A stretch of DNA of 64,000 nt from Oceanispirochaeta sp. (GCA_963666275.2 CAXXOA010000002.1:2144001-2208000), one strand, 5' to 3'; positions 46,188 through 64,000 are shown, numbered from the stretch's first letter. Program-made: numbers and translations. Notes: generated by a model not told the origin, from the letters alone.

Positions 46188-46239
46188 TTGACAGAGGCCA
46201 TTTATGCTTTTATTATGATGATAGATAATCGATAATCGA
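46188..46239 (+). promoter_or_regulatory. Sigma70 promoter + putative GntR operator (copy 1)
   Basis: TTGACA-17 bp-TATTAT, then TAGATAATCGATAATCGA. Confidence 0.72.
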
Positions 46240-46256
46240 AAAAAAATTGAGAGTAG

Positions 46257-47309
46257 ATGATTATGAAAGCAGTTGTTTTATTAGAGCCGAGTCGAATGGA
46301 ATTACAGGAGATCCCAGAGCCTGTCCTGGGATCTGCAGATATAATATGCCGTGTGAAATCCGTTTCAATCTGTGGTACTGATCCTCATATCATCCAGGGG
46401 GAGTTTCCGGGCTTATGGCCTCAATCGTTTCCTTTTGTTCCAGGTCATGAATGGGCAGGAGAAGTGGTTCAAACCGGGCCTTTAGCCGCGTTAAGCGGCT
46501 GGAAGGACGGGGACAGGGTTTGCGGTATAAGTCATGTAGGCTGTGGACTCTGTGATATGTGCCTGGAAGGGCGCTTCAATCTTTGTCTGAATTACGGAAA
46601 GGAAAAAATGGGGCACAGGCAGTACGGACATTACAGCACTGGAGCCTATTCTGAATATATCATGGCCAGCATGAAATCGGTGGCAGCAATTCCTGACGAT
46701 CTGGATTTTGATGTCGCAGCTTGTCTTGACCCGCTCAGTATCTCACTTCATGTTGTCATGAGGTCGGGAATAAAACCCGGGGATAATGTTCTGATAACAG
46801 GCAGCGGGGCACAGGGGCTCATGAGCATCATTTGTGCCCGGGAACTGGGCGCCGGGCGAATTGTTGTTTCCGGCAGCGGATATCGACTGAAGTTTGCTGA
46901 AAAAATAGGCGCCCTGACACTGAATTACAAAGATAAAAATGTATTGAAAGATGCTTTGGATATGACAGAAGGGCGGGGCTTTCAGCGGGTCATCGAGTGT
47001 TCGGGAAGCACCTCGGGTTTTACCATGGCTGTTGATGCTGTGGCAAAAGGGGGAGTTGTTTCCGTCGTCAGTCTGCCGGATGAACCGGTAGAAATCTCTC
47101 TGAGACGCATTGTCCTGGATGAAATAGATATTAGGGGAAACAGGGCAAACCCGAATACGCTCAAGAAGGCCATCTCCATCGCAGTCAGAAACCGTGAGCT
47201 GCTAAGGAGCATGATTACCCATACCTTTCCTCTTTCTGAGTTTGATACCGCTTTTGAGATATTTACAGGCAGAAAGGATAATTCCGTCAAGGTTATATTA
47301 AAACCGTGA
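46257..47309 (+). CDS. Zinc-dependent (MDR) alcohol/polyol dehydrogenase
   Basis: ICGTD, GHEWAG, CGLCDMC..GRFNLC and GSGAQG motifs. Confidence 0.92.
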   Translation: MIMKAVVLLEPSRMELQEIPEPVLGSADIICRVKSVSICGTDPHIIQGEFPGLWPQSFPFVPGHEWAGEVVQTGPLAALSGWKDGDRVCGISHVGCGLCDMCLEGRFNLCLNYGKEKMGHRQYGHYSTGAYSEYIMASMKSVAAIPDDLDFDVAACLDPLSISLHVVMRSGIKPGDNVLITGSGAQGLMSIICARELGAGRIVVSGSGYRLKFAEKIGALTLNYKDKNVLKDALDMTEGRGFQRVIECSGSTSGFTMAVDAVAKGGVVSVVSLPDEPVEISLRRIVLDEIDIRGNRANPNTLKKAISIAVRNRELLRSMITHTFPLSEFDTAFEIFTGRKDNSVKVILKP

Positions 47310-47347
47310 GGTTAATAAAAATAGAACTGTAACTAAGGAGATTGTTG

Positions 47348-48247
47348 ATGAAAGTTTTTACAGAAGAGCTTCGGTGTGCTGATGCCGCAATAAGAATTGA
47401 TGTTTATGGAGGGCCAGACAGACAGAAAGTGGCCGAAGATTCCACCTTTCTGAATTACAGACTGGCAGCTGTTACAGCTCATTCTGATACAACTAAAGGG
47501 AAACCGGATATTATCTGGAATTATGAACGGCCCAAAAAAGATATTTCCTTTATTGGAGAGCAGCTTATACTCGATGGTTTCTGGGAAGACGGGGAAATTA
47601 ATAAGGTTCTGGTCTCCATGCTGGCAATGGAGCTGAATAAGGTTGAACTTTATCCGATGCATTCTTCAGCTGTGGTTTACCGGGATAAAGGGATCCTCCT
47701 GCTGGGGGGAGAAAATAATCATGGAAAAAGCATGAGCCAGCTTGAGGGTTGTCGAAGAGGGGCTCTGATGTTTTCTACCGAAACTACTGTTATTAATGAG
47801 GATTGCAAAGCAGTTCTGGGATCTAAGAACATCTATGTCAAGAAACGGGCAAAAGGAACAGAACGGTCGGATCTTCCCGATCAGGATGAAGGTGTTGCTA
47901 AATTTTTCAACAAGGAACCGGAATATAAAACTATAGACGGTCCAATATCCATTGACCTTGTAATTATGCCCAGTATTGACGGACACTTTGATACCAAAGT
48001 TCTGCCTATGAATCAGTTTGAGAGTTCCTATCAGAGTTATCACTCACTTATGAACTTCATGGGAATGAATCAGCTCCTTTCCGGTGATGACGGTCTCTCC
48101 ATGCCTATTATCGATACAGATGCAAGGCGAAAAATTAGAGGCAAAATCTGTGCAAAGTTTGCTTCCGGGCGTCCCTATTATCTTATGAGAGCAAAAACTC
48201 CCCAGATTATATTCGATGAAATCGACAAGATCATTGACGGTATGTAG
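47348..48247 (+). CDS. Hypothetical protein with HPr-kinase-like P-loop region
   Basis: MHSSAV....GILLLGGENNHGKS resembles the HPrK/PEPCK-type H-x-x-x-V...G...GKS signature; AAGGAG RBS. Confidence 0.6.
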   Translation: MKVFTEELRCADAAIRIDVYGGPDRQKVAEDSTFLNYRLAAVTAHSDTTKGKPDIIWNYERPKKDISFIGEQLILDGFWEDGEINKVLVSMLAMELNKVELYPMHSSAVVYRDKGILLLGGENNHGKSMSQLEGCRRGALMFSTETTVINEDCKAVLGSKNIYVKKRAKGTERSDLPDQDEGVAKFFNKEPEYKTIDGPISIDLVIMPSIDGHFDTKVLPMNQFESSYQSYHSLMNFMGMNQLLSGDDGLSMPIIDTDARRKIRGKICAKFASGRPYYLMRAKTPQIIFDEIDKIIDGM

Positions 48248-48253
48248 GGCTCT

Positions 48254-48820
48254 ATGAAAATAGCTGTAATATCCGATATACATGAAAACTACCATAACCT
48301 TCTGTTATTCCTTGATAGGATAAAAGGGGAGGGAATAGGACATATCCTGTTTCTGGGCGATTTCATCAATGCGGGAATTGCACGAGTACTGGCCAGGTCC
48401 GGCTACCCTGTCTTCGCCGTTTGGGGTAATAATGACGGAGACAGGACAGCTATTCTGACAGAATGTCTGCATAAAGAGAGCGGGATGAAAATTTCCAAAG
48501 AGTGCTATGGGGATATTACCATTGAGAACAGAAGAATCTTTCTGTCCCATTATCCTGATCTGGTTCAGATAGCCTCGTCATCCGGTTTGTTTGATGCTGT
48601 TTTTTTCGGGCACTCCCATCAGGAATTCCTGGATTCATCCGAAACCTGCGTGGTCATGAATCCAGGAGAAATATCAGCACACAAGTTCGGAAATGCCAGC
48701 TTTGGTATCTATGATACTGCCAGTAACAGTGCGGTTCTGTATCAGCTGGATAACTCAATGACAGTGAAAAATGAAAGGGTTGAAAAAGAGTATTTCCGGC
48801 TGGGATTTAATCAGGAATAA
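48254..48820 (+). CDS. Metallophosphoesterase (YfcE/MJ0936 family)
   Basis: SDIH, LGD, GNND, SH, GHSH and NPG motifs. Confidence 0.9.
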   Translation: MKIAVISDIHENYHNLLLFLDRIKGEGIGHILFLGDFINAGIARVLARSGYPVFAVWGNNDGDRTAILTECLHKESGMKISKECYGDITIENRRIFLSHYPDLVQIASSSGLFDAVFFGHSHQEFLDSSETCVVMNPGEISAHKFGNASFGIYDTASNSAVLYQLDNSMTVKNERVEKEYFRLGFNQE

Positions 48821-48985
48821 GTTGCGTAAATACCTTTGCTGACAGTACGGTCACTGGTTTGATGTTCTGAAAAATTTTATGTCCTCTGTTTTCCTTTCCC
48901 TCCGGTAGAGAAAGGTCAGAACTGTTCCGGGTTTCATTTTACTGTCTGAATAGCATTCATTTGATTGGGTTCAGGAGGCTTTAAT

Positions 48986-49957
48986 GTGAGGTATATAAAG
49001 TGGATCAGAGATCTGGGTAGAGATGAAACTTTCATAACAGGGGACAAAGCAGCCAGCCTGGGAGTGCTTATTCAGAATGGTTTTAATGTTCCCGGAGGGT
49101 TCTGTATAACCGGTCCGGCATTTGAATATCTGATGAATGAACAGGAACTTATGCCTGAGATTTGCCGCATTATGAAAACGATAGATTTCAAGTGCTATGA
49201 TGATATTGAGGAGAAATCATCAGCCATAAGAAATCTGATCAATTCTGCGGAAATCCCTGAAGATTTGATGGATGAGATCCTAGAGTCTCTCAGGGAGCTA
49301 TCAGATGCGGCAGACTCTGCCTCCTATCTTGCCGTTCGATCTTCAGTCTTTTTTGAAGGCTGCAGCAGGGCGGGTTTTCCCGGAATGATGGATACCTATC
49401 ATTATATCCGAGGACAGGAAAAGATCTTACCGTGCATCAGGCATTGCTGGGCATCTGTTTATACGGCCCGGTCCCTCTTATGGCGGCATCAGCAGGGAAT
49501 TCTGAATAACCATTTTGTAATAGCACCGCTTGTTCAGAATATGATTCACTCTGAAGTATCTGGAATACTTTTAACAGTGAATGCAGTGACCAGCAATAAA
49601 AACGAGATAATAGTTGAAGCCAACTGGGGCCTTGGGGACTCACTTGTTTCGGGGGCGGCAATTGTAGACAATTACATTCTTGGCAGAGATCCACTTGATA
49701 TTAAACAGAAAACGATCATGAAAAAAAATATATATATCACTTTTGACAGAGAGGAGAAACAGGGAAAAAAACAGTACCAGGTTCCATCAGAAATATCGAC
49801 TGTCTGTACTTTGACAGATGAACAGCTTCTTGAGCTGGCTGATGCGGGGATCAGAATAGAGAAGGTCTTTCAGTCCCCACAGAATATTGAATGGGCCTAT
49901 GTGAAGGGAGAACTCTTTCTGCTTCAGGCAGGTAAGATCAAAGCATTGATCTTTTGA
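48986..49957 (+). CDS. PEP-synthase N-terminal ATP-grasp (PPDK_N) subunit, phenylphosphate synthase beta-like
   Basis: GDKAASLG, VPGGFCIT, AVRSS, CWASVYT.R, EANWGLG and IEWA motifs; GTG start after AGGAGG. Confidence 0.85.
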   Translation: MRYIKWIRDLGRDETFITGDKAASLGVLIQNGFNVPGGFCITGPAFEYLMNEQELMPEICRIMKTIDFKCYDDIEEKSSAIRNLINSAEIPEDLMDEILESLRELSDAADSASYLAVRSSVFFEGCSRAGFPGMMDTYHYIRGQEKILPCIRHCWASVYTARSLLWRHQQGILNNHFVIAPLVQNMIHSEVSGILLTVNAVTSNKNEIIVEANWGLGDSLVSGAAIVDNYILGRDPLDIKQKTIMKKNIYITFDREEKQGKKQYQVPSEISTVCTLTDEQLLELADAGIRIEKVFQSPQNIEWAYVKGELFLLQAGKIKALIF

Positions 49958-50105: not shown

Positions 50106-50155
50106 TTGACATAATAGAAAAGCAATATAACAATAATAGAAAATCGATAATCGAT
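50106..50155 (+). promoter_or_regulatory. Promoter + putative GntR operator (copy 2)
   Basis: TTGACA at 50106; TAGAAAATCGATAATCGAT at 50137-50155. Confidence 0.68.
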
Positions 50156-50171
50156 ACTAAAGGGGGGTTTA

Positions 50172-51866
50172 ATGGATACTTCTAAAGTATTAGCTCAGTA
50201 TCTGGGGGATTCAGCGTTTCCTGTTGAATGGAAGAGTGAAGAAGAGAAGAAGTTATTCTGGTTCTTTGACGATAACCATGTTCCTTTTCCTGTTTCTCCT
50301 ATGTTTTTCAGCCTTGACGGGTGGTGGGGGCCAACTTGTGAATATCTTTTCAAAAGATTTGATGTAGGCTCTGGTGTTAAATGGCACGGGAAAAAAATTA
50401 ACGGTTACGTTTATACAGCCATTGAACCCCGGGCAACGTCTCAGGATGCAGACGAGACTCAGAAATACAACAATATGGTTATGCCTGCCTATGCAACCAA
50501 TTTTCTTGACTGGTGGGATAAAAGGTATCTTCCGGAAGTTCTTAAAAACTTTGAATACATAGATAACTTCGATCATGAAAATGCGACGATTCCCGAACTG
50601 ATGATCTATCTGGAAGAGATGGTAGATATTCAGGAGAGGAACTTCAGACTTCACTGGATTCTGAACTGGGCTCAGTTTCAGGCCTCCATGGGATTCGTCG
50701 GTGCTGTGGGTCAGTATATTGGAGAAGTGGATCAGGACTTTCTGGGCCAGGTTAATGTTTCCAGAGCTGACAAAAACTGGGAAAGCCTCAAAGCTCTGTG
50801 GACACTGAAAGAAGAAATCAAAGCCAGTGCGGAATTGAAATCAATCTTTACCGCACAGACTGATCCTGAAGGTATTGAAAAGGCACTTAATGGCAGTCCT
50901 TCCGGCAAAGCCTTCATGGGCAAGGTCCGGAATTATGCCAGTGAGTTCGGCTATAAGGCTGTGTATACTCATGAATATATCTATCCGCTGTATATAGAAG
51001 ATCAGAAACCTATACTTGATCAGTTAAAAAGTTATCTTGAATCTGATTTTGATTATAACAGCGTCTATGACAAATGCATCAAAGATCAGGATGAAGCGAT
51101 TGCTTATCTGAGAGATAAAATCAAAGACAAAGATCCTGAAACAAAGAAGAAATTTGAAGAGGCTCTGGATCTTAATCTGAAAATGCTTCCTCTGACTCCG
51201 GATCACCATTTCTATTTTGACCAGGGTACTTATGCCAGAATGAGAATGGTCCTTATCAGAGTAGCCAGTAGACTGGTTAAAGAGGGACTGCTGGATGATC
51301 AGGAAGATATCATGCTTCTGGAATATGAACAGCTGAGGCGCTATGTGGCCGATCCCGAAAACTACAATGGACGTCAATTGATTGAGGCTGCCAGGGCTGA
51401 AATGGAAAAGGCTAAAAAAATAACACCCCGTGACTGGGTGGGAACAGCGACGCAATGGAATATGTATGAAGAGCCTTACCATACACTGTGGGGATATCCT
51501 GAAAAATTTGAAAGAGAATCCAGTGAAAAGTGTGAGGGAACTATTCAGGGGCTTCCTGCCAGCCCGGGTGTTGTTGAAGGAACGGCTAAGGTTGTTAAAA
51601 GCCCGGCAGAATTCGAACAGGTCAAGCAGGGGGATATTATTGTCTGTATCATGACAAACCCCGCCTGGGTAGTTGTATTCAGTAAAATTGCCGGTATTGT
51701 CACAGATTCCGGCGGTGTCCTTTCTCATTCGGCGGTCGTTGCCAGAGAATTCGGGATTCCCGCTGTAGTAGGAACCAGTTCGGCAACCAAAGAGATTCAT
51801 ACAGGAGATAAAATCAGGGTCGATGGAAAAACCGGGACTGTTACAATCCTGGAATGCACTGACTGA
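50172..51866 (+). CDS. PEP-utilising enzyme: substrate-binding domain + swivelling phospho-His domain (phenylphosphate synthase alpha / rifampin phosphotransferase-like)
   Basis: C-terminal GLPASPG, TNPAW and GGVLSHSAVVAREFGIPAVVG; long helical N-terminal domain; no ATP-grasp domain and no pyruvate-binding barrel. Confidence 0.88.
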   Translation: MDTSKVLAQYLGDSAFPVEWKSEEEKKLFWFFDDNHVPFPVSPMFFSLDGWWGPTCEYLFKRFDVGSGVKWHGKKINGYVYTAIEPRATSQDADETQKYNNMVMPAYATNFLDWWDKRYLPEVLKNFEYIDNFDHENATIPELMIYLEEMVDIQERNFRLHWILNWAQFQASMGFVGAVGQYIGEVDQDFLGQVNVSRADKNWESLKALWTLKEEIKASAELKSIFTAQTDPEGIEKALNGSPSGKAFMGKVRNYASEFGYKAVYTHEYIYPLYIEDQKPILDQLKSYLESDFDYNSVYDKCIKDQDEAIAYLRDKIKDKDPETKKKFEEALDLNLKMLPLTPDHHFYFDQGTYARMRMVLIRVASRLVKEGLLDDQEDIMLLEYEQLRRYVADPENYNGRQLIEAARAEMEKAKKITPRDWVGTATQWNMYEEPYHTLWGYPEKFERESSEKCEGTIQGLPASPGVVEGTAKVVKSPAEFEQVKQGDIIVCIMTNPAWVVVFSKIAGIVTDSGGVLSHSAVVAREFGIPAVVGTSSATKEIHTGDKIRVDGKTGTVTILECTD

Positions 51867-51975: not shown

Positions 51976-53007
51976 ATGAATGAGTATCTGAAATGGATGG
52001 CTGGTAAAACCACATCTGCCTGGTGGCATGATTCGGCAGATTTGAATGAAGTTGAAAAAGCAATGGAATCCGGTGCTGTGGGAGTTACTACGAATCCAGT
52101 TCTTGTAAAACAAGCTTTATTCTCAAGCCCTGAATTCTGGAATTCCTATTTAACCGATTTCCCTGAAAATCTGAAAGCTGATGCCAAAGCAGAAGAAATA
52201 ATCAGAAGGATCACAGTGGAAGTGGCGGCAAAACTGTTACCTATCTATGAAAAAACAGGGGGAGAACAGGGCTACGTCTGTGCTCAGGTCAATCCCGGAA
52301 AAACAACAGATAGAGAGGGCATGATGGAAATGGCGGAAAGACTTCATGCCTGGGCCCCCAATATTGCAGTGAAAATCCCCGGCACAGCTGTAGGGCTGGA
52401 TGTTCTGGAGGATTGTGCAGCCCGGGGGATGACGATGGTTTCGACAGTCAGCTTCACTCTGCCTCAGGTACTTGCGGCGGCTGAAAGGTATGAAAAGGGC
52501 CGTGCAAGATGCATCGCTGCAGGAAAGAAGCCAGCGAAATGTTTTGCCGTGGTCATGGTAGGCCGCATCGATGATTTCATCAGGGATGTGGTTCGGGACA
52601 ATCAGTATGAAGATATAAAAGAGGAAGATATTCTGATGTGCGGAACCGGGATTATGAAGAGGGCTTTGGAAATCTTTGAACAGAAAGGTTACAACGCCAT
52701 TCTTATGCCTGCAGGTATGAGAGGTGCCTATCATGCCCAGGACCTGGCCGGCGCCTCTTTGACAATGTCAATTCATCCGAAAATACAGGCTTTACTTGAA
52801 AAAAGTTCTTCCCCCTTCAAAGAGAGGCATGCTGAAAAGCTTGAGAAAGAGACTATAAAAAGGCTCTCCCGGGTGGAAGCTTTCAGAAAAGCCTATGAGC
52901 CGGATGTTATGCCTCCTTCAGAATTTATTACCTACGGGGTTGTGCAGAAAACCCTGGCGCAATTCTCAGAAAGCTGGAGTCAATTGGAAGGGTATACGCT
53001 TCCTTAG
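51976..53007 (+). CDS. Transaldolase/FSA family class I aldolase (atypical)
   Basis: WHDSA, GVTTNP, Schiff-base Lys in NIAVKIP, and VGRIDD motifs. Confidence 0.85.
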   Translation: MNEYLKWMAGKTTSAWWHDSADLNEVEKAMESGAVGVTTNPVLVKQALFSSPEFWNSYLTDFPENLKADAKAEEIIRRITVEVAAKLLPIYEKTGGEQGYVCAQVNPGKTTDREGMMEMAERLHAWAPNIAVKIPGTAVGLDVLEDCAARGMTMVSTVSFTLPQVLAAAERYEKGRARCIAAGKKPAKCFAVVMVGRIDDFIRDVVRDNQYEDIKEEDILMCGTGIMKRALEIFEQKGYNAILMPAGMRGAYHAQDLAGASLTMSIHPKIQALLEKSSSPFKERHAEKLEKETIKRLSRVEAFRKAYEPDVMPPSEFITYGVVQKTLAQFSESWSQLEGYTLP

Positions 53008-53027
53008 GGTTGTGCAGGAGGAATGTC

Positions 53028-53867
53028 ATGGAACAGAGGTTTGAGAATCAGGGAAAGAAAATTCTGTCAGTGGAAAATTTTCAGAAAGATCCTTCGTCCA
53101 CGGATTTTTTTTCCATTGAAGGTCTCTGGAACAAAAAGAATGATATGAAACTCAGTTACCATGATTTTCATCAGATTATATTTGTGGAAAAAGGTGTCTT
53201 TATTCTGTATGACGGAAAGTATCAGCAGCCCTTATATAAAGGAGCTGCTGCCTTTATTCCTGTAGGATATCCCCACAGGATCTACAATCTTCAGAATAGT
53301 ATCTCTGCAAAAACAAGTTCGGTCTATTTTAATTCATCCTTCATGGAAGGAATGGATGATGGCATTCTTATTTTTACAGTTTCCGAGCTAATCGAATCTC
53401 TTATTAAAGAGATTACCGGGCTGGAAGCAAATGAAGCAGATGATATTAATATGAAATGTGTTGCTCTTCTTGTGGAACTTATTAAAAGAGAAACAGAGCA
53501 GCCCAGGCAGAGGATTAAACTGCCTGTTTCCAATGATGAGAGAATACAGAAATCTGTAGATTTCATGCAGCTCAACTTCAGCAGAAAAATAACTCTTACG
53601 GATATTGCCGGAACAGTCTGTCTTTCGACACGTCAGTTTTCCAGGCTTTTTACTGACAAGATGGGAGTCACTCCCTTCGAGTATCTCAGGATGTACCGCA
53701 TTATTTCAGTTCTTCCCACTCTTTCTATGACAAAAGAGAATATCCTGGACAGCATCTATCAGAGCGGATATGAAACTGTGTCATCCTTTTATAAAGATTT
53801 TACCCAGTTTATTGGAATGCCCCCGGGAGCATTCAGAAAAAATCATAACCTGTATAAATCAGCCTAG
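53028..53867 (+). CDS. AraC family transcriptional regulator
   Basis: Cupin HDFHQ..H; HTH LSTRQFSRLF and GYETVSSFYKDF; AGGAGG RBS before ATG 53028. Confidence 0.9.
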   Translation: MEQRFENQGKKILSVENFQKDPSSTDFFSIEGLWNKKNDMKLSYHDFHQIIFVEKGVFILYDGKYQQPLYKGAAAFIPVGYPHRIYNLQNSISAKTSSVYFNSSFMEGMDDGILIFTVSELIESLIKEITGLEANEADDINMKCVALLVELIKRETEQPRQRIKLPVSNDERIQKSVDFMQLNFSRKITLTDIAGTVCLSTRQFSRLFTDKMGVTPFEYLRMYRIISVLPTLSMTKENILDSIYQSGYETVSSFYKDFTQFIGMPPGAFRKNHNLYKSA

Positions 53868-53881
53868 TAAAGAATAGGATG

Positions 53882-54553
53882 TCACTCCAGACTGTCGATC
53901 ATACTTTCTGCGGTGTGTTTGATATGCTTCTCCATAAGAGATGCAGCCTGAGTAGAATCCCCGTTCCTCAGGGCTTCAATGATTGGTTTGTGTCTTTCGG
54001 CGATCTCAAGGGAATCTGATGCTATGTGTGTACCCGTGGCATAGGACAGACTGGCAAATAGCATGTTCCGGGAAATCCTCTGAATCAGTTTATGTCCTGA
54101 AATGCGGATAATCGTTTCGTGGAACAGAATATTGTAGGTTGTCCGTTTGTAGGCATCTCCTTTTTTCGCTGCCTTTATCATTTTATCAAGGATATCTTCC
54201 AGTTCCCTGATTTCCTGTTTTGTTATTTTTGATGCCGCAATGCCTGCTGTCACGGATTCCAGGGTGGCCCTCACGGTAAAAACCTCCCAGAGGTCTTCTT
54301 TGCTCAGAGTTTTTACGGTGATGCCCTTGTAGGGAACAGATTCAAGAAGTCCCATCTCGACAAGTCCCTTGATGGCTTCTCTCACAGGAGCCTGACTGAC
54401 ATTGAATTCTTTAGCTATAGAGCTTTCTATTAGCCTATCACCGGCCTTATATTTCTTTGATAGAAGATCCTGTAATATCTGATCTTTAATTTTTTCACTG
54501 AGAACCTTTTTCTCAAAACCGTCTCTTACACCATTATTGTTGGCCAATGACAT
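53882..54553 (-). CDS. GntR family transcriptional regulator (FCD domain)
   Basis: wHTH (LIESSIAKEFNVSQAPVREA); FCD NILFH..H..H. Confidence 0.93.
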   Translation of the reverse strand: MSLANNNGVRDGFEKKVLSEKIKDQILQDLLSKKYKAGDRLIESSIAKEFNVSQAPVREAIKGLVEMGLLESVPYKGITVKTLSKEDLWEVFTVRATLESVTAGIAASKITKQEIRELEDILDKMIKAAKKGDAYKRTTYNILFHETIIRISGHKLIQRISRNMLFASLSYATGTHIASDSLEIAERHKPIIEALRNGDSTQAASLMEKHIKHTAESMIDSLE

Positions 54554-54669: not shown

Positions 54670-54687
54670 TTGATTATCGATAATAAA
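54670..54687. promoter_or_regulatory. Putative GntR operator (copy 3), between gntR and the divergent operon
   Basis: TTGATTATCGATAATAAA, containing the palindrome ATTATCGATAAT. Confidence 0.65.
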
Positions 54688-55707: not shown

Positions 55708-56655
55708 ATGAAGTTAGATAATATTAAGCATATTGCCATTATCGGTAAAGGTATGATCGGGGCCAGTCTGGCTGTCCTTTTTACAGGGAATGGCTATAAA
55801 ACCACCATATATGCCCGAAAGGATCCTGAAAAGGGGTTGGACAGCTTTGATACCTACTATAAGGATCTGATTGAAAAGGGGCTGGTTACCCCCTCTCAGG
55901 CTGCAGCCTGCAGGGACCTTTTTTCCGTGACCGGGAGTTATGAAGATCTGGCCGATGCAGACTGCATTTTTGAATGCGTTGTGGAAAACCTGGATGTTAA
56001 GTATGAAGTGTTTGCTGAAATAGAAAAACACTGTACCCATTTTAAAGCCATTGCTTCAACAACTTCAGCCATAGCGGTGAATGATCTGGCAAAAGGGATA
56101 AAACAGAAAGATAAACTAATGGTAGCTCATCCCTGGAATCCTCCCCATCTTGTACCCTGTATAGAAGTTGTAAAGGGGGAACATACTAGCGAAGAATCCA
56201 TCGAATATTTATCCGGACTTCTGGAATCAGCGGGACGGGAAGTTGCTCTGATGAAAAAAGACGCACCGGGATTCATCGGGAACAGGCTGCAGCATGCTTT
56301 ATACCGGGAAGCCGTCAATATGGTGGAACAGGGAATTGCTTCTCCGGAAGATATAGACAAGACACTGAAGTACAGTTTTATTCCCAGGTACACATCTATC
56401 GGTCTTTTTGAGCATTTTGATTATGCCGGACTTGATATGGTACTGAGTATTGAAGATTATCTGTTTCCCACTCTTTGCAATGCGGACAGAACTCAGCCTA
56501 TGATCCGGGAGCTTCATGATTCGGGCAATCTCGGGTTTAAAACCGGAAAAGGGGTTTATGACTGGAGTCAGAAAGACCTGGCCGAGTTTCGCAAAAAGGC
56601 GGGAAAGCCGTATCTGGATTTTTTTAACTGGAGCCTTCCGGATAAAAATAATTAA
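55708..56655 (+). CDS. 3-hydroxyacyl-CoA dehydrogenase family NAD-dependent oxidoreductase
   Basis: GKGMIG, ECVVENL..K, HPWNPP...IEVV, PGFIGNRLQ and GFKTGKG motifs. Confidence 0.9.
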   Translation: MKLDNIKHIAIIGKGMIGASLAVLFTGNGYKTTIYARKDPEKGLDSFDTYYKDLIEKGLVTPSQAAACRDLFSVTGSYEDLADADCIFECVVENLDVKYEVFAEIEKHCTHFKAIASTTSAIAVNDLAKGIKQKDKLMVAHPWNPPHLVPCIEVVKGEHTSEESIEYLSGLLESAGREVALMKKDAPGFIGNRLQHALYREAVNMVEQGIASPEDIDKTLKYSFIPRYTSIGLFEHFDYAGLDMVLSIEDYLFPTLCNADRTQPMIRELHDSGNLGFKTGKGVYDWSQKDLAEFRKKAGKPYLDFFNWSLPDKNN

Positions 56656-56846
56656 TTGACGGACAGGAATATATTCATTTTTATCAGAAGTCTCAAGAAA
56701 TCCCGATCAGAAGTAATTTTATCAGAATACAAGTAAATATAAAAATCTTCTATTTGATTTATCAAATGCGGGGAAGATTATTCCCTCAAAGAGGGAGACT
56801 CCATGGGGTATGCATCTTTGGGAATCCTGAAATAAGTGAGGACAGT

Positions 56847-57719
56847 ATGAGCTCTTTTTCCTACCACAGTCCAGGATCTATAATTGAGGCTGTGGAGCTG
56901 CTAAATCAATACAAGGGTTCTGCCCGACCGTTTCTGGGCGGTACGGATCTCCTTGTAAGGGTTACCAAAGGACATGTGTTTCCACAAGCCCTGGTGGATC
57001 TCAAAAAAGTTTCTGATATAAGCAAAACAATAACTCTGGGCTCCGGTTTTCTTATCATAGGAGCCCGGATCAGGATTGCTGATTTTCTCGAAGATCAAAC
57101 TGCTGCCGCATTATTTCCTGCACTTGCGAAAGCCGCATCAAAGGTCGGGTCGGTACAGATCCGCAACCGAGCGACTCTCACAGGGAATATCTGCAATGCT
57201 TCGCCTGCGGCTGATATGGTTCCGCCCCTGGCGCTGTACAAAGCTTCTGTGGATATTGCCGGATCTGAAGGATCAAGGAGAGTCGCTGTTCAGGACTTTA
57301 TTCAGGCGCCGGGAAAAACCGGATGCCGGACGGGAGAAATCGTGACAGCAATCCGGATACCTGTTCCGGTCCTCCCATACGGTGCTGCTTTTGAAAGGAT
57401 AACACGAAGAAGAGGAGTGGATCTGGCAACTGTTAATCTGGCATGCGGGATTGACTGCCACCGGAAGGTGACTTTTGTATTCGGCGCTGCCGGTCCTGTC
57501 ACTGTTTCTGTTTCTGATGATTCCGGTATTCTGCTGCGCTCGGATATACACAAGGATGCAAGGGACAGAAAAATTGACGAAATGGTTGATTCTGCCGCTC
57601 CCATCAGTGATGTGCGGGCCGGAGCAGATTACAGGAAGGGGATGCTCTCAACCCTGGGAAAGCGGGCATTGAGCAGGGCTCTGAATTCCTATCTGGCGGG
57701 AGGTCCCGAAGATGGCTGA
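56847..57719 (+). CDS. Xanthine dehydrogenase family FAD-binding subunit (enzyme 1)
   Basis: GGTDL, GSVQIRNRATLTGNICNASPAAD and PISDVR..ADYR motifs; start set at MSSFSY (56847). Confidence 0.92.
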   Translation: MSSFSYHSPGSIIEAVELLNQYKGSARPFLGGTDLLVRVTKGHVFPQALVDLKKVSDISKTITLGSGFLIIGARIRIADFLEDQTAAALFPALAKAASKVGSVQIRNRATLTGNICNASPAADMVPPLALYKASVDIAGSEGSRRVAVQDFIQAPGKTGCRTGEIVTAIRIPVPVLPYGAAFERITRRRGVDLATVNLACGIDCHRKVTFVFGAAGPVTVSVSDDSGILLRSDIHKDARDRKIDEMVDSAAPISDVRAGADYRKGMLSTLGKRALSRALNSYLAGGPEDG

Positions 57720-58197
57720 CAATATTACACTGACAATTCATATAACAGTTAACGGGCAGAGCCGGACGCTTGAGGTTGATCCATCGGAAACCCTCCTTTC
57801 AGTTCTGCGGGACAGGCTGAATCTGACGGGGACAAAAAAATGCTGCGGTGTAGGGGAGTGCGGTGCCTGTACGGTTGTAATGAACGGCCTGTCTGTTAAT
57901 TCCTGTATCATCCTGGCTGCAGAGGCCGACGGAGCTGATGTGGTAACAATCGAAGGACTTTCGGAGAGCGGGTCTCCGGGAAGGATTCAGCAGGCTTTTC
58001 TGGACGAGGGCGCTGTACAGTGCGGTTTCTGCACCCCTGGAATGGTTATGTCTGCCCATGCTCTATTGATGAAAAATCCATCTCCCACTGTTTTTGAGAT
58101 AAAAGAAGGGCTTTCCGGTAATCTCTGCCGCTGTACCGGATATGCAAGGATCATCAGAGCCGTGCAGACGGCGGCGGGAAAAGGCGGCGGAGAATGA
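57712..58197 (+). CDS. Xanthine dehydrogenase family 2x[2Fe-2S] subunit (enzyme 1)
   Basis: CGVGECGAC..SC, QCGFC and NLCRCTGY motifs. Confidence 0.95.
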   Translation: MADNITLTIHITVNGQSRTLEVDPSETLLSVLRDRLNLTGTKKCCGVGECGACTVVMNGLSVNSCIILAAEADGADVVTIEGLSESGSPGRIQQAFLDEGAVQCGFCTPGMVMSAHALLMKNPSPTVFEIKEGLSGNLCRCTGYARIIRAVQTAAGKGGGE

Positions 58198-60419
58198 AAA
58201 TTGTTGGTAAACCCGTGAACCGGGTGGGAGGAAAAGAGAGGGTTCTGGGTACACAGGAGTATGTGGGGGATATCAAGCTTCCGGGGATGCTTCATGGAAA
58301 ACTGGTTACCCTGGACTGCGCCCGGGCCCGGATTGACCGCATCCATTTGAAACGGGCCCTTATGATACGGGGGGTCAGAAAAATTTTCACCGCTGCGGAC
58401 TTTCCCGAAGATCCCCGGTTTGGACCCCAGTACAGGGATCGACCGGTGCTTGCAGGAAAAGAGACAAAATTTCATGGAGAGCCGGTGGCCTTTGTTGTGG
58501 CAGAGTCTATTGAAGCTGCCAATCGGGCTGCTGCATTGATTACAGTCGATTATGAAATCCTTTCCGCTGTTCTCTCACCTGCTGCGGCACTGGATCCTGA
58601 TGCTCCCCTTGTTCAGGATCCGTCTTTAAGGAAGGAGATGGAGTGGAAAAATTCCAATATTTTGAATCAGTGGGTCTATGGCTGGGGGAATATTGAAGTC
58701 TGCCGGGCTGACCGGATTATTGAAAATACCTACAAGTTCCCTATGGTTACCCATTTTGCCATTGAATCATTCTGCTATCTGGCGGATCCTTCATCAGAAG
58801 GTATCACTTTATACAGTGCCATTCAGAATCCCTTTCAGCTCCAGAAAATCATAGCTGATGTGACAGGTTTTCCTCTGTCCAGGGTGAGAATTATAGCTCC
58901 TGATCCCGGAGGGGCCTTTGGCGGGAAACAGCATCCCAAGCATGAACCTCTGCTTGTTTTGGCCAGTCTGATGCTCGGTGAGCCTATCAGGCTGGAACTG
59001 AGCCTGGAGGAATCCTTTCAGGCTGTCCGCAGGGCCGCCTCGGAAATCAGAATAAAAACAGGATTCATGGAAGACGGAACCCTTGTCTTTCATGATATTC
59101 AGTCGGATTTTCTTGCAGGTGCCTATGGTGACATTGCCGGCAGGGTTGTGAGTAAAGCAAACTTTGTGGCGGCGGGGCTTTACAGAACTCCTCATGTCAG
59201 GATTACTGCGAATGCTCTTCTATCCCATACTGTTCCTTCCACAGCTTTCAGAGGGTTCGGGATTCCCCAGGTCAACTGGGCTCTTGAATCCCAGATGGAC
59301 GAGATAGCGGTTAATCTCGGAATGGACAGAGTCGCCATCAGGATGAAAAATCTTCCCGAAAAAGGAGAGGTCTTTATTCCGGGAAATACACCGGCTGACG
59401 GCTGTTGGAAAGAAGTTCTCCAAAAGGCAGCGGATGCCATAGGCTGGAATAGCCCCTTAAAGCCCAACCGGGGAAGGGGGCTGACCATGGGGTTGAAAAT
59501 GGGGGCCACGACTGCCGCGTCCTATGCCATCGTCAGGCTTCATATGGACGGCAGTGCTACAGTCTTCGCCGGAACATCCGATATGGGCCAGGGGGCCAGA
59601 ACCATATTTTCGCAGATTGTGTCGGAAATGCTGGGTATCGATATGGCCAAAATAACCATGGTGATGGGAGATACCGGAGCTGTCCCTTTCGATCTTCAGA
59701 CATCAGCCAGCAGGTCCACCGTTTTTATGGGAAAAGCCATTCAGAAAGCCTGTGACGAGGTGATCGGTAAAGTCCAGATCCTTGCCTCAGAGGTGATGGG
59801 TATCGAACCTGTCCAGCTGGCATTTGAACCGGGGTTCATAAGACATGAAAAAGAAACAGTTCCCATTGATACCATTCTTAAAAAGCGGTTCACACCGGTG
59901 AAGGGAGAAGTCATAGGTGTTGGCGAGGCCAGGAGTGAATACCTGCCGGATCATCCCATGGGCGGCCTGGCGGCTTTTTATGAAATCGTGGCTCTGGGCA
60001 CCGAGGTAGAGGTGGATCGAGAAACAGGGTTTACCCGTATAAAAAAAATGATCATCACAGGTGATGTGGGAAAAGCCGTTAATCTTCAGCACGTTGAAAT
60101 GCAGGATGAGGGTGCGGCTGTAATGGGTATCGGACATTCGATAATGGAGCAGATGATTCTGGATGACAACGGAAAGATCCTTAACCTGGGGGCTCTGGAC
60201 TACAGGATTCCCACTATTATGGATATTCCTGATGAAATGCGTTCCATTGTGATCGAAAACGGCGACGGGCCAGGCCCTTACGGAGCCAAGGGATGTTCTG
60301 AAAGTGGTATCCTCACGGTGGCTCCTTCTATTGCCGCGGCTGTTTATGAAGCTGTAGGCGTGAGGATCCGGGATCTGCCTCTCTCTCCCGAAAAGATCTG
60401 GAAATCATTGAACCCCTGA
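58194..60419 (+). CDS. Xanthine dehydrogenase family molybdopterin-binding subunit (enzyme 1)
   Basis: GGAFGGK, AFRGFG, DMGQG, SASRST and GPYGAKGCSE (catalytic Glu) motifs. Confidence 0.93.
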   Translation: MKIVGKPVNRVGGKERVLGTQEYVGDIKLPGMLHGKLVTLDCARARIDRIHLKRALMIRGVRKIFTAADFPEDPRFGPQYRDRPVLAGKETKFHGEPVAFVVAESIEAANRAAALITVDYEILSAVLSPAAALDPDAPLVQDPSLRKEMEWKNSNILNQWVYGWGNIEVCRADRIIENTYKFPMVTHFAIESFCYLADPSSEGITLYSAIQNPFQLQKIIADVTGFPLSRVRIIAPDPGGAFGGKQHPKHEPLLVLASLMLGEPIRLELSLEESFQAVRRAASEIRIKTGFMEDGTLVFHDIQSDFLAGAYGDIAGRVVSKANFVAAGLYRTPHVRITANALLSHTVPSTAFRGFGIPQVNWALESQMDEIAVNLGMDRVAIRMKNLPEKGEVFIPGNTPADGCWKEVLQKAADAIGWNSPLKPNRGRGLTMGLKMGATTAASYAIVRLHMDGSATVFAGTSDMGQGARTIFSQIVSEMLGIDMAKITMVMGDTGAVPFDLQTSASRSTVFMGKAIQKACDEVIGKVQILASEVMGIEPVQLAFEPGFIRHEKETVPIDTILKKRFTPVKGEVIGVGEARSEYLPDHPMGGLAAFYEIVALGTEVEVDRETGFTRIKKMIITGDVGKAVNLQHVEMQDEGAAVMGIGHSIMEQMILDDNGKILNLGALDYRIPTIMDIPDEMRSIVIENGDGPGPYGAKGCSESGILTVAPSIAAAVYEAVGVRIRDLPLSPEKIWKSLNP

Positions 60420-60557
60420 GATTGTGCCGGGAGGGGCAGTCAGTGCCGGACGTACCCGATATGATCTTAAAATTTTAATGACAGAGGATAAACTCTAATC
60501 TTTAATATACAAATAATATTATATAAGGATTGGATTATGAATTGAGAATAATAATTC

Positions 60558-60610
60558 TTTACGGAGAAGGCTTCTTATTGTAAAATTGTTCTAGATTATC
60601 GAAAATCGAT
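60558..60610 (+). promoter_or_regulatory. Promoter + putative GntR operator (copy 4)
   Basis: TTTACG-17 bp-TAAAAT (60581), then TAGATTATCGAAAATCGAT (60592-60610). Confidence 0.68.
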
Positions 60611-60624
60611 AGAGGGGTTTCCAG

Positions 60625-62958
60625 ATGGGAAATTTGAAAGTAGTAGGCAAATCAGTCACCAGAAAAGATGTGATTGATAAAGTTACCGGGATAACCAAAT
60701 ATACCGGTGATATTAACATGACCAGTCAACTTTACGGTGCATTCTACCGCAGTCCCGTACCTCATGGAAAAATTGTGAATATAGATGTCACCAAAGCAAA
60801 AGAATATCCCGGAGTCCGGGTTGTGATAACCGGGGAAGATGTTCCCTATCTCATTGGCCAGACCATTGTAGACCAGCCAGTCCTTGCTGTCGGCAAGGTC
60901 AGGATGGAAGGTGAGCCTATTGTCGGGATTGCGGCAGATACCATAGAAGCGGCCTACCGGGCCGCTGCTCTTGTGAAAGTGGAAATAGAACCTCTTCCCG
61001 TTATTGATGACGTAATGGAAGCGATGAAACCCGATTCACCCCTTGTTCATGAGAAGCTGGAAGACTATGTCAATCTGACCAAATCCCGCTGTAAAAACGG
61101 TACGAATATTTATGATCACTTCACACTCAGAAAAGGGGATGTGGAGAAGGGTTTTGAAGAAGCCGATGTTATCATTGAAAAGGAATACGACTGCGCCATG
61201 CTCAGTCATGCAACAATAGAGACCCATGCTTCGATTGCCCAGTATGAAAGAAGTGGAAAACTGACAGTCATTAGCGCCGCTCAGTCTCCCTTCAGGATCC
61301 GTGCTGAAATGGCCAGAGCCTTCGGTATGGATGAAAGTAAAATCAGGGTGATATCTCCTCCCATCGGAGGAGGATTCGGCAGTAAAGTGGAAATGCGGTC
61401 CGAACAGCTGGCCATCGCTCTGGCCATGCATTCCAACGGTAAACCCGTAAAGGTTGTTTTTTCCAGAAAAGAGGATCTTCTCGCGGGGGTGGTCAGGGCC
61501 GGTGTAAAATTCAGAATCAAAACAGGTGCAAAAAAAGACGGTACCATCGTAGCAGTCCAGTCTGATAATTACTGGGATACCGGTGCCTATGCAACTTTAG
61601 GTCCGGTTATCTCCCTGAAAGCGAATATTGCCCTGACAGGGCCCTATAGTGTTGATAATATCAAGATGGACGGATACTGTGTGGCAACCAACAAACAGCT
61701 GGGAACAGCCTACCGGGGGTTCGGGGCGGCCGAAGCCGCGTATGTCCATGAGCAGCAGATGGACGCTGTAGCAAAGGCTCTTGGTATGGATCCTCTGGAA
61801 TTGCGGCTTAAAAATGTCATGGTCGACGGCAGCAGGGGACATACAGGTGAAACCATGTTTACTGTGGCCATCAAAGAGTGTCTGGAAGCTTCTGCCGAAA
61901 GTCTGGGATGGAATTCAATGCCTTTGAGCTGGATTACTCCGGAAGGGAAAATCCGGGGAAAAGGGCTGGGGGCTTTTTTGAAATTCACAGGAACTCCCTC
62001 TTTTTCCGGTGCTACCGTGAAATTTTCCCATGACGGCTCTGTCACACTCTCCTATGGAACTACTGCCATGGGCCAGGGGGTTGGAACGATCCTCTCCCAG
62101 ATGGTTGCTGAAGAGCTTGGGATAGACATTAACAAGGTTGAAACAGTTCTGGCTGATACGGATCATGTTCCTCTGGATAAAACCACAACCTCCAGCCGTT
62201 CCACCCATCATATGGGAAATGCCGTAATCAAGGCGTGCGATGATGCGAAAAAGAAGTTGAAGCATCTTGTTTCTCTGGCCTGGAAAGTTCCAGAAGATTA
62301 CATAGAAATTGAAGATGGTGTTATCAGAGAGTCAAATGGGGGACCAGATGCCAGGCAGGTAGCCATTAATGATATAAAATCTACCGGACTTCTTAAAACT
62401 TCTGATCCCATTATCGGAAACGGCAGTTATGAAACTTCAGATCTCTGGGATAAACCGGACCCTGAAACCTATCAGACCAGCCGTTTGACTGCCATGTGGT
62501 TTTTCGGAGCCAATGCGGCAGAAGTTGAAATTGATCCTGATACGGGGAAAATTGAGGTTATTCAGGTTGCTGCCGGTCATGACGTAGGAAAGGCTATTAA
62601 TCCTCTGAACTGCATTCAGCAGATAGAAGGAGGAGTAATGATGGGACTGGGAAATGCCATACTGGAAGAGTATATCCATCGCGATGGAAAGCTAATGAAT
62701 GGAAATATGGTAGACTTTAAAGTTCCCACGACTATGGATATGGTCAAAACTGTCAAATCCATTCTCATAGAAAAAGCCCATCCCGAAGGTCCTTACGGCG
62801 CTAAGGGAATTGGGGAACCCTCCATGTGCGGCGCACCGGCCGCTATCGCTTCCGCCGTAGGAAATGCTCTGGGAATAACAGTACATACGATTCCCATAAA
62901 ACCGGAAACGATTATTGGGGCTGCCAGAAAAATTATGGAGGAAAACGATGCTTCCTGA
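60625..62958 (+). CDS. Xanthine dehydrogenase family molybdopterin-binding subunit (enzyme 2)
   Basis: IGGGFGSK, AYRGFG, MGQG, SSRST, QIEGG and GPYGAKGIGE motifs. Confidence 0.94.
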   Translation: MGNLKVVGKSVTRKDVIDKVTGITKYTGDINMTSQLYGAFYRSPVPHGKIVNIDVTKAKEYPGVRVVITGEDVPYLIGQTIVDQPVLAVGKVRMEGEPIVGIAADTIEAAYRAAALVKVEIEPLPVIDDVMEAMKPDSPLVHEKLEDYVNLTKSRCKNGTNIYDHFTLRKGDVEKGFEEADVIIEKEYDCAMLSHATIETHASIAQYERSGKLTVISAAQSPFRIRAEMARAFGMDESKIRVISPPIGGGFGSKVEMRSEQLAIALAMHSNGKPVKVVFSRKEDLLAGVVRAGVKFRIKTGAKKDGTIVAVQSDNYWDTGAYATLGPVISLKANIALTGPYSVDNIKMDGYCVATNKQLGTAYRGFGAAEAAYVHEQQMDAVAKALGMDPLELRLKNVMVDGSRGHTGETMFTVAIKECLEASAESLGWNSMPLSWITPEGKIRGKGLGAFLKFTGTPSFSGATVKFSHDGSVTLSYGTTAMGQGVGTILSQMVAEELGIDINKVETVLADTDHVPLDKTTTSSRSTHHMGNAVIKACDDAKKKLKHLVSLAWKVPEDYIEIEDGVIRESNGGPDARQVAINDIKSTGLLKTSDPIIGNGSYETSDLWDKPDPETYQTSRLTAMWFFGANAAEVEIDPDTGKIEVIQVAAGHDVGKAINPLNCIQQIEGGVMMGLGNAILEEYIHRDGKLMNGNMVDFKVPTTMDMVKTVKSILIEKAHPEGPYGAKGIGEPSMCGAPAAIASAVGNALGITVHTIPIKPETIIGAARKIMEENDAS

Positions 62959-63835
62959 ATTTGAGTTCTACCTTCCGGAAACACTGGATGAAGCTTTTAA
63001 TGTTAAAAGACAATACGGACAGGACGCCGAATATGTAGCCGGAGGCACGGATGTATATGCCAAGATGCACACAGAAGGCCATTCCTATCCTCATATTATT
63101 GATTTAAAGAAAATCCCCGAACTGCAGGGAATTGTGGAAATGGAAAACAGGGAAATATCTATGGGATCCATGGTGACACATCATGAGATCTGGGCTTCTC
63201 CTGTTATGAAGAAGAACTACTTCATATTGACCGAAGGGGTTTTTACCATTGGTTCTCACCAGGTGAGAAACCGGGGAACCATTGGTGGAAACATCTGTAC
63301 AGCAGCTCCTTCTGCGGATGGAATAGGTCCTTTGCTGGTATTGAATGCCAGGGCTGTTGTTAAGGGCAGTTCCGGGGAGAGAGTGATTCCTCTGGAGAAA
63401 TTCTTTACAGGGCCTAAAAAAACCGTTCTTGAGGGAGATGAAGTCCTGGCCAGGATCATGATTCCTCCTGTTTCCGAAAGGAGTGGGGGGGCCTACTTCA
63501 AGTATGGAAGACGAAATGCCATGGAAATTGCTCTTCAGGCTATATCTGTGTTTCTGCAGGTGGAAGAGGACGGTAAAACCTGTTCTGATGTCAGAATCGC
63601 CCTGGGAACTTCTGCTCCCACGCCCATCAGGGCCTATGGTACAGAAGAGTATCTGAAAGGAAAGGACCTGACCAATGATACGCTTATTGCCGAAACAGGC
63701 AGAGTTATCCTGAATGAAGCCAGGCCCAGGAGTTCCTGGAGGTCTTCCGCTGAGTTCAGGAAAGATCTACTTGTGAAACTGGTTCCCAGAACCATACGCA
63801 AAGCTTATTCCCGGATAGATCAAGGAGAGGTGTGA
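62948..63835 (+). CDS. Xanthine dehydrogenase family FAD-binding subunit (enzyme 2)
   Basis: [27 protein letters not shown] and [12 protein letters not shown] motifs; start set at MLPEF (62948). Confidence 0.92.
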
Positions 63836-64000
63836 TGAATCGAAAGAAGATAGAAATAACAGTCAACGGACAAAAATACATAAAAGAGGTTTCTGTATCC
63901 CGGACATTACTCGAGTTTATTCGGGAGGATCTGGGACTAACTGGGGCAAAAGAGGGTTGCAACGAGGGGGAATGCGGAGCCTGTACTGTTATTATGAACA
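63835..64000 (+). CDS. Xanthine dehydrogenase family [2Fe-2S] subunit (enzyme 2; truncated by the window end)
   Basis: Manual translation [60 protein letters not shown] overlap. Confidence 0.92.

Follow-up and report, generated by a model that had tools for sequence, protein, structure and literature searches.

Two-component dikinases that phosphorylate a hydroxyl group are known to open bacterial catabolic routes. HpeHI, CreHI and PpsAB phosphorylate phenolic hydroxyls, and their substrate-side subunits HpeH, CreH and PpsA carry a T/SxxGGxxxH motif without the regulatory Thr (PMC12167813). In the 3hpd cluster of Ensifer adhaerens HP1, a pair consisting of a phosphoenolpyruvate (PEP) utiliser and a dikinase is required for the molybdenum (Mo) enzyme HpdA to hydroxylate 3-hydroxypyridine (bioRxiv 2020.01.08.898148). 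VadK (Rv1127c), a barrel-less PPDK, autophosphorylates on His422 and is described as a regulatory histidine kinase; its operon partner Rv1126c is used, in the available text, solely as a solubility aid (PMC13400623). With these systems is compared here a gene cluster at the end of a stretch of 64,000 nucleotides from Oceanispirochaeta sp. (GCA_963666275.2 CAXXOA010000002.1:2144001-2208000). This stretch, hereafter the window, equals G000:C2:2144001-2208000 of a genome of 5.27 Mb on three contigs; coordinates above 64000 continue its numbering along the same contig. An earlier note on the window had proposed a candidate undescribed pathway of anaerobic degradation. The cluster is almost certainly a real, uncharacterized catabolic regulon, co-regulated and conserved. 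The best explanation of it as a whole, with a probability of roughly 0.45, would be a GntR-repressed pathway that breaks down a small hydroxylated heterocycle without O2 and opens with PEP-fed O-phosphorylation.

Open reading frame (ORF) calling and a Pfam scan of the window confirmed every gene named in the note as an intact ORF of the family assigned to it (Table 1). The predicted continuation past the window end exists, but it amounts only to a second 2Fe-2S subunit, ending at 64320, and the gene of a truncated PPDK, after which an unrelated inositol-type region follows. None of the scanned kinase, aldolase, metallo-beta-lactamase-fold (MBL), dehydrogenase and Mo-enzyme subunits reaches an NCBIfam equivalog cut-off. 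Literature and database searches agree with the note in that the set maps onto no described pathway; going by the accessible parts of the reports, neither the riboflavin-induced fin cluster (PMC13492142) nor the 2-HIBA pathway (PMC7176365) matches. A search with the acceptor subunit of the kinase retrieved 68 syntenic loci in 64 genomes of Spirochaetota, Chloroflexota, Bacteroidota, Acidobacteriota, Planctomycetota, Myxococcota and archaea, which bears out the co-conservation that the note had named as a test. Orthologues in these loci were counted by tblastn, and the counts are lower bounds because the loci end at 10 kb or at contig ends. The named closest homologues of the cluster marker gene are mostly from Spirochaetota (70-76% identity), which makes a free-living spirochaete the probable host. 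The marker was found in none of 37 same-family genomes and in three of 150 relatives; the cluster is therefore patchy and probably acquired.

The genes are tied together by a palindromic operator, GATTATCGATAATC-like, at 46224, 50139, 54672 and 60594. To these four copies, already recognized in the note, a perfect fifth one at 67124 is added, and in a genome-wide profile scan the cluster's sites rank as the top five. Sites with at most one mismatch occur in the 5.27-Mb genome only at 46224, 54672, 60594 and 67124, the chance expectation being about 1.06 genome-wide and 0.004 per 22 kb. The related loci hold 119 operator sites, distributed over 40 of the 68, versus 3-5 expected from Markov controls; 33 of these sites lie upstream of the acceptor gene. 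The operator precedes the truncated PPDK gene in all nine spirochaete orthologues examined, and the motif is found in Thermomicrobium roseum too. Since the sites at 46224, 50139 and 60594 lie directly downstream of sigma70-like hexamer pairs, the operator is in repressor position; the GntR/FCD protein of the cluster likely binds it as a putative repressor. Genes for a 2-hydroxyacid dehydrogenase, a LysR regulator, a TauE protein and a URO-D-like protein (window 41824-45947) were considered as members and rejected: they are without operator, and the TauE and URO-D-like genes recur in none and one of the 68 loci, respectively.

The acceptor subunit of the kinase consists of an RPH-like substrate domain and a C-terminal swivel domain, in which His519 is part of the sequence TDSGGVLSH; this fits T/SxxGGxxxH and lacks the regulatory Thr. 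Its closest solved structure is RPH, and together with the domain composition this upholds the phenylphosphate-synthase/RPH-type architecture recognized earlier. Common to the system described here and HpeHI, CreHI and PpsAB (and the single-chain RPH) are the separate ATP-grasp and substrate-plus-swivel subunits, the swivel motif and the predicted position at the opening of a catabolic route. Unlike those enzymes, the acceptor forms its own clade (SH-aLRT 100, 27 rows, in a quick tree with three long outgroup branches) and has three interchangeable donors, one of them without any ATP-binding domain; its partners are a Mo enzyme, a lactam-type hydrolase and an aldolase instead of a carboxylase, P450 or CoA ligase. 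Identity is 35-46% within the acceptor clade, falls to about 30% outside it, and is about 25-35% to HpeH-type proteins; with a best NCBIfam score of 189.7 versus a cut-off of 578, the acceptor stands outside the PRK08296/HpeH sequence group. The 3hpd cluster, as far as described, likewise assembles PEP-utiliser and dikinase subunits (Orf9/Orf10), an XDH-family Mo enzyme (HpdA) and a GntR regulator; it differs in a maleamate route with a dioxygenase and an SRPBCC subunit, neither of which is present in this cluster. It is the only kinase-plus-Mo-enzyme precedent found, and is set beside the cluster by description, not by sequence. Two other kinase loci may be mentioned. On a Bacillus thuringiensis plasmid (L072:10974-13578) a split dikinase pair, probably a tailoring kinase or ligase, is located directly behind non-ribosomal peptide synthetase genes, and a Rhizobium leguminosarum plasmid (L073:11056-20215), which served as reference, carries an Hpe/Acv-type set of kinase pair, biotin carboxylase, HAD hydrolase and CoA ligase.

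In PPDK, residues of the GGK, QDIEW and LQxR regions bind the nucleotide. The ATP-grasp subunit of the Oceanispirochaeta cluster reads GDK, QNIEW and LQAG, versus GGK, QD(I/V)EW and LQxR in all 33 other rows; intact nucleotide-binding motifs are thus absent in this genome and present in the orthologous loci. Judged from these substitutions, the subunit is probably degenerate here. The split dikinase of the note accordingly stands as far as the genes of both halves are present, but its ATP-grasp half looks degenerate.

A second candidate donor is encoded beyond the window. The truncated PPDK aligns solely to residues 368-887 of the full-length PPDK of 888 amino acids (aa) encoded elsewhere in the genome (45% identity; next-best paralogue 28%), and Pfam detects no ATP-grasp domain (PPDK_N) in it. 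It retains the swivel His129 and the barrel motifs CRTEHM, RLLD, MIETP, GTNDL and GVCGEH, which have PEP-binding roles in PPDK. Its C-terminal 200 aa form a domain in which His700, His765 and His772 are invariant and which is modeled (pLDDT 94.9) as an N-terminal MarR-like winged helix followed by a four-helix bundle that carries invariant His. The modeled bundle is compatible with a phosphoryl relay without proving it; a Foldseek match of the domain at E <= 0.001 was not found. Donor genes were searched in the genomes of 50 of the 68 loci. Thirteen of them gave no match to the ATP-grasp subunit, and the His-rich domain is present in 10 of these 13 versus 6 of the other 37 (Fisher p 1.4e-4, a value that is overstated because related genomes are not independent). 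One of the ten, G041, is apparently a single chromosome-length record. Fusion of the domain to the PEP-type half occurs in nine genomes, with the operator upstream in every one; in seven genomes the domain is present at 32-41% identity and, in the four aligned, is fused to a barrel-less PPDK ATP-grasp half. Among the 150 relatives the domain occurs in two, both of them among the three acceptor carriers and both also in the 68-locus set. Given the apparent decay of the ATP-grasp subunit and the pattern of donor exchange, the simplest reading is that the PEP-type truncated PPDK is the working donor in this genome, and its role as PEP-dependent donor for the acceptor can be regarded as reasonably probable. 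O2-independent breakdown of a hydroxylated ring, as the note had it, keeps its basis in an oxygenase-free, phosphorylation-type gene set, but the PEP-type donor outside the window changes how the kinase most likely works.

The His-rich domain is not confined to these clusters. Stand-alone homologues in Actinomycetota carry the annotation "MarR family". Among plasmids, 23 records contain the domain; of ten opened, a barrel-less PPDK is encoded in nine and a further protein with a swivel domain in eight, and the domain often lies among oxidoreductase and CoA-ligase genes. Fusions were found with the PPDK N-half, the PPDK C-half, a PEP-utilising enzyme (Rhodococcus opacus B4) and an AMP-binding protein (Rhodococcus LW-XY12). 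Being fused to donor, acceptor and other enzymes, the domain suggests itself as a phosphotransfer adaptor. Presumably it is homologous to Rv1126c. VadK is comparable in being a truncated PPDK, and barrel-less PPDKs adjoin the same His-rich domain in plasmids of Mycobacterium, Rhodococcus and Diaphorobacter; the protein described here differs in keeping the opposite half, the PEP barrel without ATP-grasp, fused to the domain. In a transposon screen, the gene of the truncated PPDK, rv1127c, behaves much like rv2047c, which encodes a PEP-utiliser: their condition profiles in Table 1 of the report (PMC7058343) are nearly identical, as would be expected if one product loaded the other, which fits the adaptor model. 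The relay envisaged resembles Enzyme I and HPr of the phosphotransferase system (PTS) in that a PEP-binding barrel and a swivel His would begin a His-to-His transfer to a small molecule; unlike in the PTS, the barrel is PPDK-derived, the cluster contains no HPr or EII, and the end point would be a soluble RPH-type kinase. A full-text literature search, outside which most subscription papers fall, returned no paper describing these genes as a set, a PEP-fed dikinase so built or a relay role of the domain. Tentatively, a widespread three-part system may be envisaged, in which half-PPDK donors (an ATP-fed N-half or a PEP-fed C-half) would hand phosphoryl groups via a His-rich adaptor mis-annotated as MarR to RPH-type kinases, here in an O2-independent hydroxypyridine pathway with ATP recovery by the PEPCK-fold protein once the ring is open. 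New would be the PEP-fed, adaptor-linked build; the kinase would work in the known manner of HpeHI, though its acceptor stands outside the HpeH sequence group and its ATP-grasp subunit is not intact in this genome.

From gene content, the common operator, cross-phylum conservation, domain anatomy and presence/absence patterns we infer the substrate, the relay and the following steps. In the first one, PEP would phosphorylate His129 of the truncated PPDK; the His-rich domain would relay the phosphoryl group to, or dock the donor on, His519 of the acceptor, which would then phosphorylate the ring hydroxyl. In other genomes, the acceptor would be loaded from ATP by a PEP-synthase-type ATP-grasp subunit or by a PPDK N-half with His-rich domain. 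With the hydroxyl masked, a Mo-hydroxylase would form a lactam by oxidising the carbon beside the ring nitrogen, on the model of 3hpd. The Mo subunits of both XDH-family enzymes, X1 and X2, retain the Glu at the catalytic position, and the five X1/X2 subunits scanned remain below the NCBIfam cut-offs for 4-hydroxybenzoyl-CoA reductase and purine XDH. The lactam would be opened by the MBL hydrolase, or by a cyclase in other genomes; the EHHxDH motif of the former and the closeness of the latter to isatin hydrolase and kynurenine formamidase suggest amide or lactam hydrolysis. The binding protein of neighbouring ABC transporters gave only weak matches, to amino-acid and amide binders (E 3e-4).

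Removal of the phosphoryl group would fall to the PEPCK-fold protein. Over its 301 aa this protein has no Pfam or NCBIfam match, the HPr kinase domain included, and its profile finds ATP-PEPCK as best PDB match (E 9e-4). G84-E85, H107, K129 (the P-loop Lys) and E147 are invariant, the Gly-Glu, His and P-loop Lys positions of ATP-PEPCK are retained, and Glu-Thr is found in place of the Asp-Asp pair that is the reference motif of HPrK and PEPCK. No match was obtained in the T. roseum cluster and none in the plasmids. No other partner is linked so tightly to the kinase, and the protein therefore probably acts on the phosphorylated intermediate; that it returns the phosphoryl group to ADP, possibly from an enol phosphate, is a guess. 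After hydration and a dehydrogenase step, the aldolase would cleave the chain, releasing malonate semialdehyde and, as the other fragment, a small hydroxy-carbonyl compound. The acid-base pair of such enzymes is Glu/Phe in transaldolase and Gln/Tyr in FSA. In the aldolase of the cluster, K133 (the Schiff-base Lys), D19 and N40 (of the TTNP and Asp motifs) are invariant in 23 rows, and all 23 have Gln104/Met194, matching neither pair, so that the enzyme deserves the label atypical it had been given. Its presence in 16 of the 17 loci with a semialdehyde dehydrogenase, together with an MMSDH passing its NCBIfam cut-off, points to malonate or methylmalonate semialdehyde as product. The products would proceed to transketolase and to acetyl-CoA, the latter by way of MMSDH or of a decarboxylase together with a CoA-acylating dehydrogenase. 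The regions L087:9780-13960 (G000:C2:1887780-1891960) and L088:7680-10680 hold another aldolase of this family, behind which lie genes for a CoA-acylating aldehyde dehydrogenase and a carboxyltransferase. Related clusters have this trio as well, and its last two members are present twice in the genome; these genes could supply the lower pathway, but no operator was found in these regions.

By chemical inference, the aldol cut is best accommodated by a 3-hydroxypyridine skeleton, such as breakdown products of vitamin B6 also have: phosphorylation at O3, oxidation at C6, opening of the lactam and a cut between C3 and C4 would yield malonate semialdehyde from C4-C6. A substrate of this type can be named only tentatively.

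Several genes recur in the 68 loci and are absent from this cluster, namely those for an SDR (22 loci), DUF1097 (22), the cyclase (19), a lactonase (18), a cupin (18), a transketolase (18), a tungsten-type AOR (17), an HD hydrolase (16), MMSDH (12) and a CoA-acylating aldehyde dehydrogenase (5). Some of them are mutually exclusive with genes of the cluster or with one another and may encode alternative enzymes for one step: the MBL hydrolase (28 loci) and the isatin-hydrolase-like cyclase are together in no locus, SDR and 3HCDH-fold dehydrogenase share none, nor do MMSDH and the CoA-acylating dehydrogenase, while the HD and YfcE genes share one. Because X1, X2 and AOR (27, 3 and 17 loci, one overlap) alternate in a single slot, the two Mo-hydroxylases of the note are not a pathway feature; the phosphoesterase and the 3HCDH-like enzyme, there counted with the core, turn out to be accessory. 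In T. roseum, which is an aerobe, a related module comprises the acceptor (49% identity), ATP-grasp subunit, XDH, cyclase and GntR, adjoining an FAH protein and a gene of the antibiotic-biosynthesis-monooxygenase family. The module is therefore not confined to anaerobes: of the anaerobic degradation originally proposed, an oxygenase-free, co-conserved and co-regulated set is retained, but "O2-independent" is the safer term. Four Anaerolineae variants (L029-L031 and L046) encode a nickel-dependent malate racemase that passes its NCBIfam cut-off, three of them with a class II aldolase, and Tm-1-like (UPF0261) genes are often present.

A number of observations weigh against PEP-fed catabolism of a hydroxylated heterocycle. 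In 17 loci the Mo enzyme is replaced by AOR, an exchange easier to reconcile with the oxidation of an aldehyde than with ring hydroxylation, and four of the enzymes (SDR, lactonase, aldolase and transketolase) look like enzymes of sugar-acid metabolism. With about 25-35% identity to HpeH-type proteins and a clade of its own, the acceptor does not inherit a phenolic substrate by homology. The exclusive gene pairs follow lineage (Anaerolineae versus spirochaetes), and two different substrates may therefore have been pooled. For the recurrent SDR, lactonase, cupin, DUF1097 and MMSDH genes, no clear orthologue was found in this genome, so its pathway may be incomplete. Neither donor was found in 3 of the 13 genomes without ATP-grasp subunit, which are incomplete metagenome-assembled genomes. 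The His-rich bundle resembles many others; its similarity to the phosphotransfer domain of CheA (Z 9.6, rmsd 3.0 over 101 residues) is non-specific, as unrelated bundles score higher (Z 12.7).

Among the alternatives, a sugar-acid or cyclitol pathway survives best, though it is unlikely. The target of the kinase would be a secondary alcohol or an enol in a deoxy-sugar, a reductone or a pyrone; an aldehyde would be oxidised by the Mo or tungsten enzyme; and lactonase, SDR and aldolase would yield malonate semialdehyde via a 2-deoxy-keto acid, much as the lower part of inositol catabolism does. RPH, the closest structure to the acceptor, acts on a non-aromatic hydroxyl. The SDR is nearest to gluconate 5-dehydrogenases, an SMP-30 lactonase and a transketolase occur in 18 loci each, AOR and XDH are interchangeable, and some loci are flanked by sugar-type ABC transporters. 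Against such a pathway stands the amide-hydrolase-like cyclase in 19 loci, and an ordinary sugar kinase would be cheaper. Furthermore, the characterized catabolic two-component dikinases target aromatic hydroxyls (PMC12167813).

Less likely still, the truncated PPDK could be a regulator, i.e., a PEP/pyruvate-sensing histidine kinase with a winged helix binding DNA or proteins, the acceptor being ATP-fed via the ATP-grasp subunit. The winged-helix N-half of the His-rich domain, the retention of both components in 6 of 37 genomes and the regulatory role proposed for VadK (PMC13400623) speak in its favor. Left unexplained would be why, in 10 of 13 genomes, the protein takes the place of a missing ATP-grasp subunit, as well as the decay of that subunit in this genome, the fusions of the domain to enzymes and its plasmid co-location with donor and acceptor; a dedicated GntR is, moreover, already present.

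An O2-independent route for vitamin B6, with pyridoxine or 4-pyridoxate as substrate, would be one form of the heterocycle pathway, with the alcohol dehydrogenase (ADH), lactonase and 3HCDH-like enzyme oxidising the side chains; it is improbable. The B6 ring is a 3-hydroxypyridine, alcohol, aldehyde and lactone enzymes are present, and the 3HCDH-fold protein has FHMPC 5-dehydrogenase of B6 degradation as best PDB and NCBIfam match. Its NCBIfam score, however, is 178.9 versus a cut-off of 500, FHMPC and 3-hydroxybutyryl-CoA dehydrogenase tie at 144.9 versus 144.4 bits, and the gene is rare among the loci; the MBL hydrolase scores 27.7 versus 325 for 4-pyridoxolactonase, and pyridoxal 4-dehydrogenase is absent among the 60 PDB matches listed for the SDR.

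A phenylphosphate route, in which phenol-type activation would lead either to carboxylation by the PEPCK-fold protein or to reductive dehydroxylation by the Mo enzyme as an analogue of 4-hydroxybenzoyl-CoA reductase, is very unlikely: the alpha subunit of that reductase is the best PDB match of X1L and the best NCBIfam match of X2L, and the P-loop protein does resemble PEPCK, but the reductase scores are 378 and 523 versus a cut-off of 994.55, the FAD subunits match the beta model in pieces only, PEPCK has about 540 aa, and neither CoA ligase nor UbiD is among the recurrent neighbours. UbiD is absent from the window, as the note stated, but the genome does encode it, with three matches that are all >1 Mb away or on another contig and none at the top operator sites. 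A separate cluster at G000:C2:1100497-1126542 contains an ABC transporter, two XDH-family enzymes, two UbiD genes, a UbiX-like gene and an aldehyde dehydrogenase, and is putatively another heteroaromatic pathway.

Table 1. Genes and regulatory sites of the cluster, with occurrence of orthologues in the related loci
Feature	Position	Strand	Remarks
Sigma70-type promoter TTGACA-17-TATTAT, operator directly downstream (46217-46237)	46188..46237	+	Before Zn-ADH
Zn-dependent (MDR) alcohol/polyol dehydrogenase (Zn-ADH)	46257..47309	+	Pfam/NCBIfam; 24/68 loci
PEPCK/HPrK-fold P-loop protein	47342..48247	+	47/68 loci; partner with tightest linkage
YfcE-type metallophosphoesterase	48254..48820	+	Accessory, 3/68 loci; alternates with HD phosphohydrolase (16/68)
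ATP-grasp (PPDK_N) kinase subunit	48965..49957	+	Probably degenerate in this genome; 31/68 loci
Promoter-like site, operator at 50139	50106..50152	+	Before acceptor gene
Acceptor kinase subunit (PEP-utilisers Pfam)	50172..51866	+	RPH/HpeH-type substrate domain and swivel domain, His519
Transaldolase-family class I aldolase (TAL_FSA)	51976..53007	+	Lys133; unusual Gln104/Met194 pair; 23/68 loci
AraC-family regulator	53010..53867	+	Accessory, 4/68 loci
GntR/FCD regulator	53882..54553	-	44/68 loci; likely operator binder
Operator	54672..54685	.	Between divergent gntR and MBL genes
MBL-fold (Lactamase_B) hydrolase	54798..55688	+	E60-H-H-x-D-H motif; 28/68 loci
3HCDH-fold NAD dehydrogenase	55708..56655	+	HPWNPP motif; accessory, 3/68 loci; alternates with gluconate-5-dehydrogenase-like SDR (22)
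XDH-family Mo enzyme X1 (FAD, 2Fe-2S, Mo subunits)	56754..60419	+	Glu703; 27/68 loci, 34/50 genomes
Operator	60594..60607	.	Before X2
XDH-family Mo enzyme X2 (Mo, FAD, 2Fe-2S subunits)	60625..64320	+	Glu731; 3/68 loci; last gene 320 nt beyond window end
Truncated PPDK with C-terminal His-rich domain	64699-67068 = G000:C2:2208699-2211068 (L001:2699-5068)	-	Outside window
Perfect palindromic operator	G000:C2:2211124-2211137		Just upstream of truncated PPDK gene; outside window

Between the truncated PPDK gene and the next operon, a tRNA-like remnant and degraded mobile-element-like sequence, together possibly an integration scar, were observed (L001:5690-5760). The region beyond (L001:6432-18803) encodes a sugar ABC transporter, a creatininase-family hydrolase, a TIM-barrel epimerase, three Zn-dehydrogenases and a Gfo/Idh protein; no operator site was seen in it. 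We take this set to resemble a Thermotoga-type inositol route, and similar genes recur in L002. Elsewhere in the window (32712-34652), a DUF438/PAS-like protein with a hemerythrin-like neighbour was recognized by eye from the translation.

The phosphorylation-first catabolic kinases known so far spend ATP to AMP, and a PEP-fed version, if true, would be cheaper for fermenting organisms. It would represent a PTS-like relay that has a soluble kinase as its end point. The three-part system envisaged above would also tell by what route truncated PPDKs such as VadK pass on their phosphoryl group. The adaptor model provides a testable function for a common actinobacterial "MarR" family and for barrel-less PPDKs. 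Finally, the regulon points to a compound degraded by uncultured anaerobes among the spirochaetes, Anaerolineae and Bathyarchaeia, and the discovery of the ligand is made direct by its operator, by its putative repressor and by the availability in culture of T. roseum DSM 5159, which has a related module.

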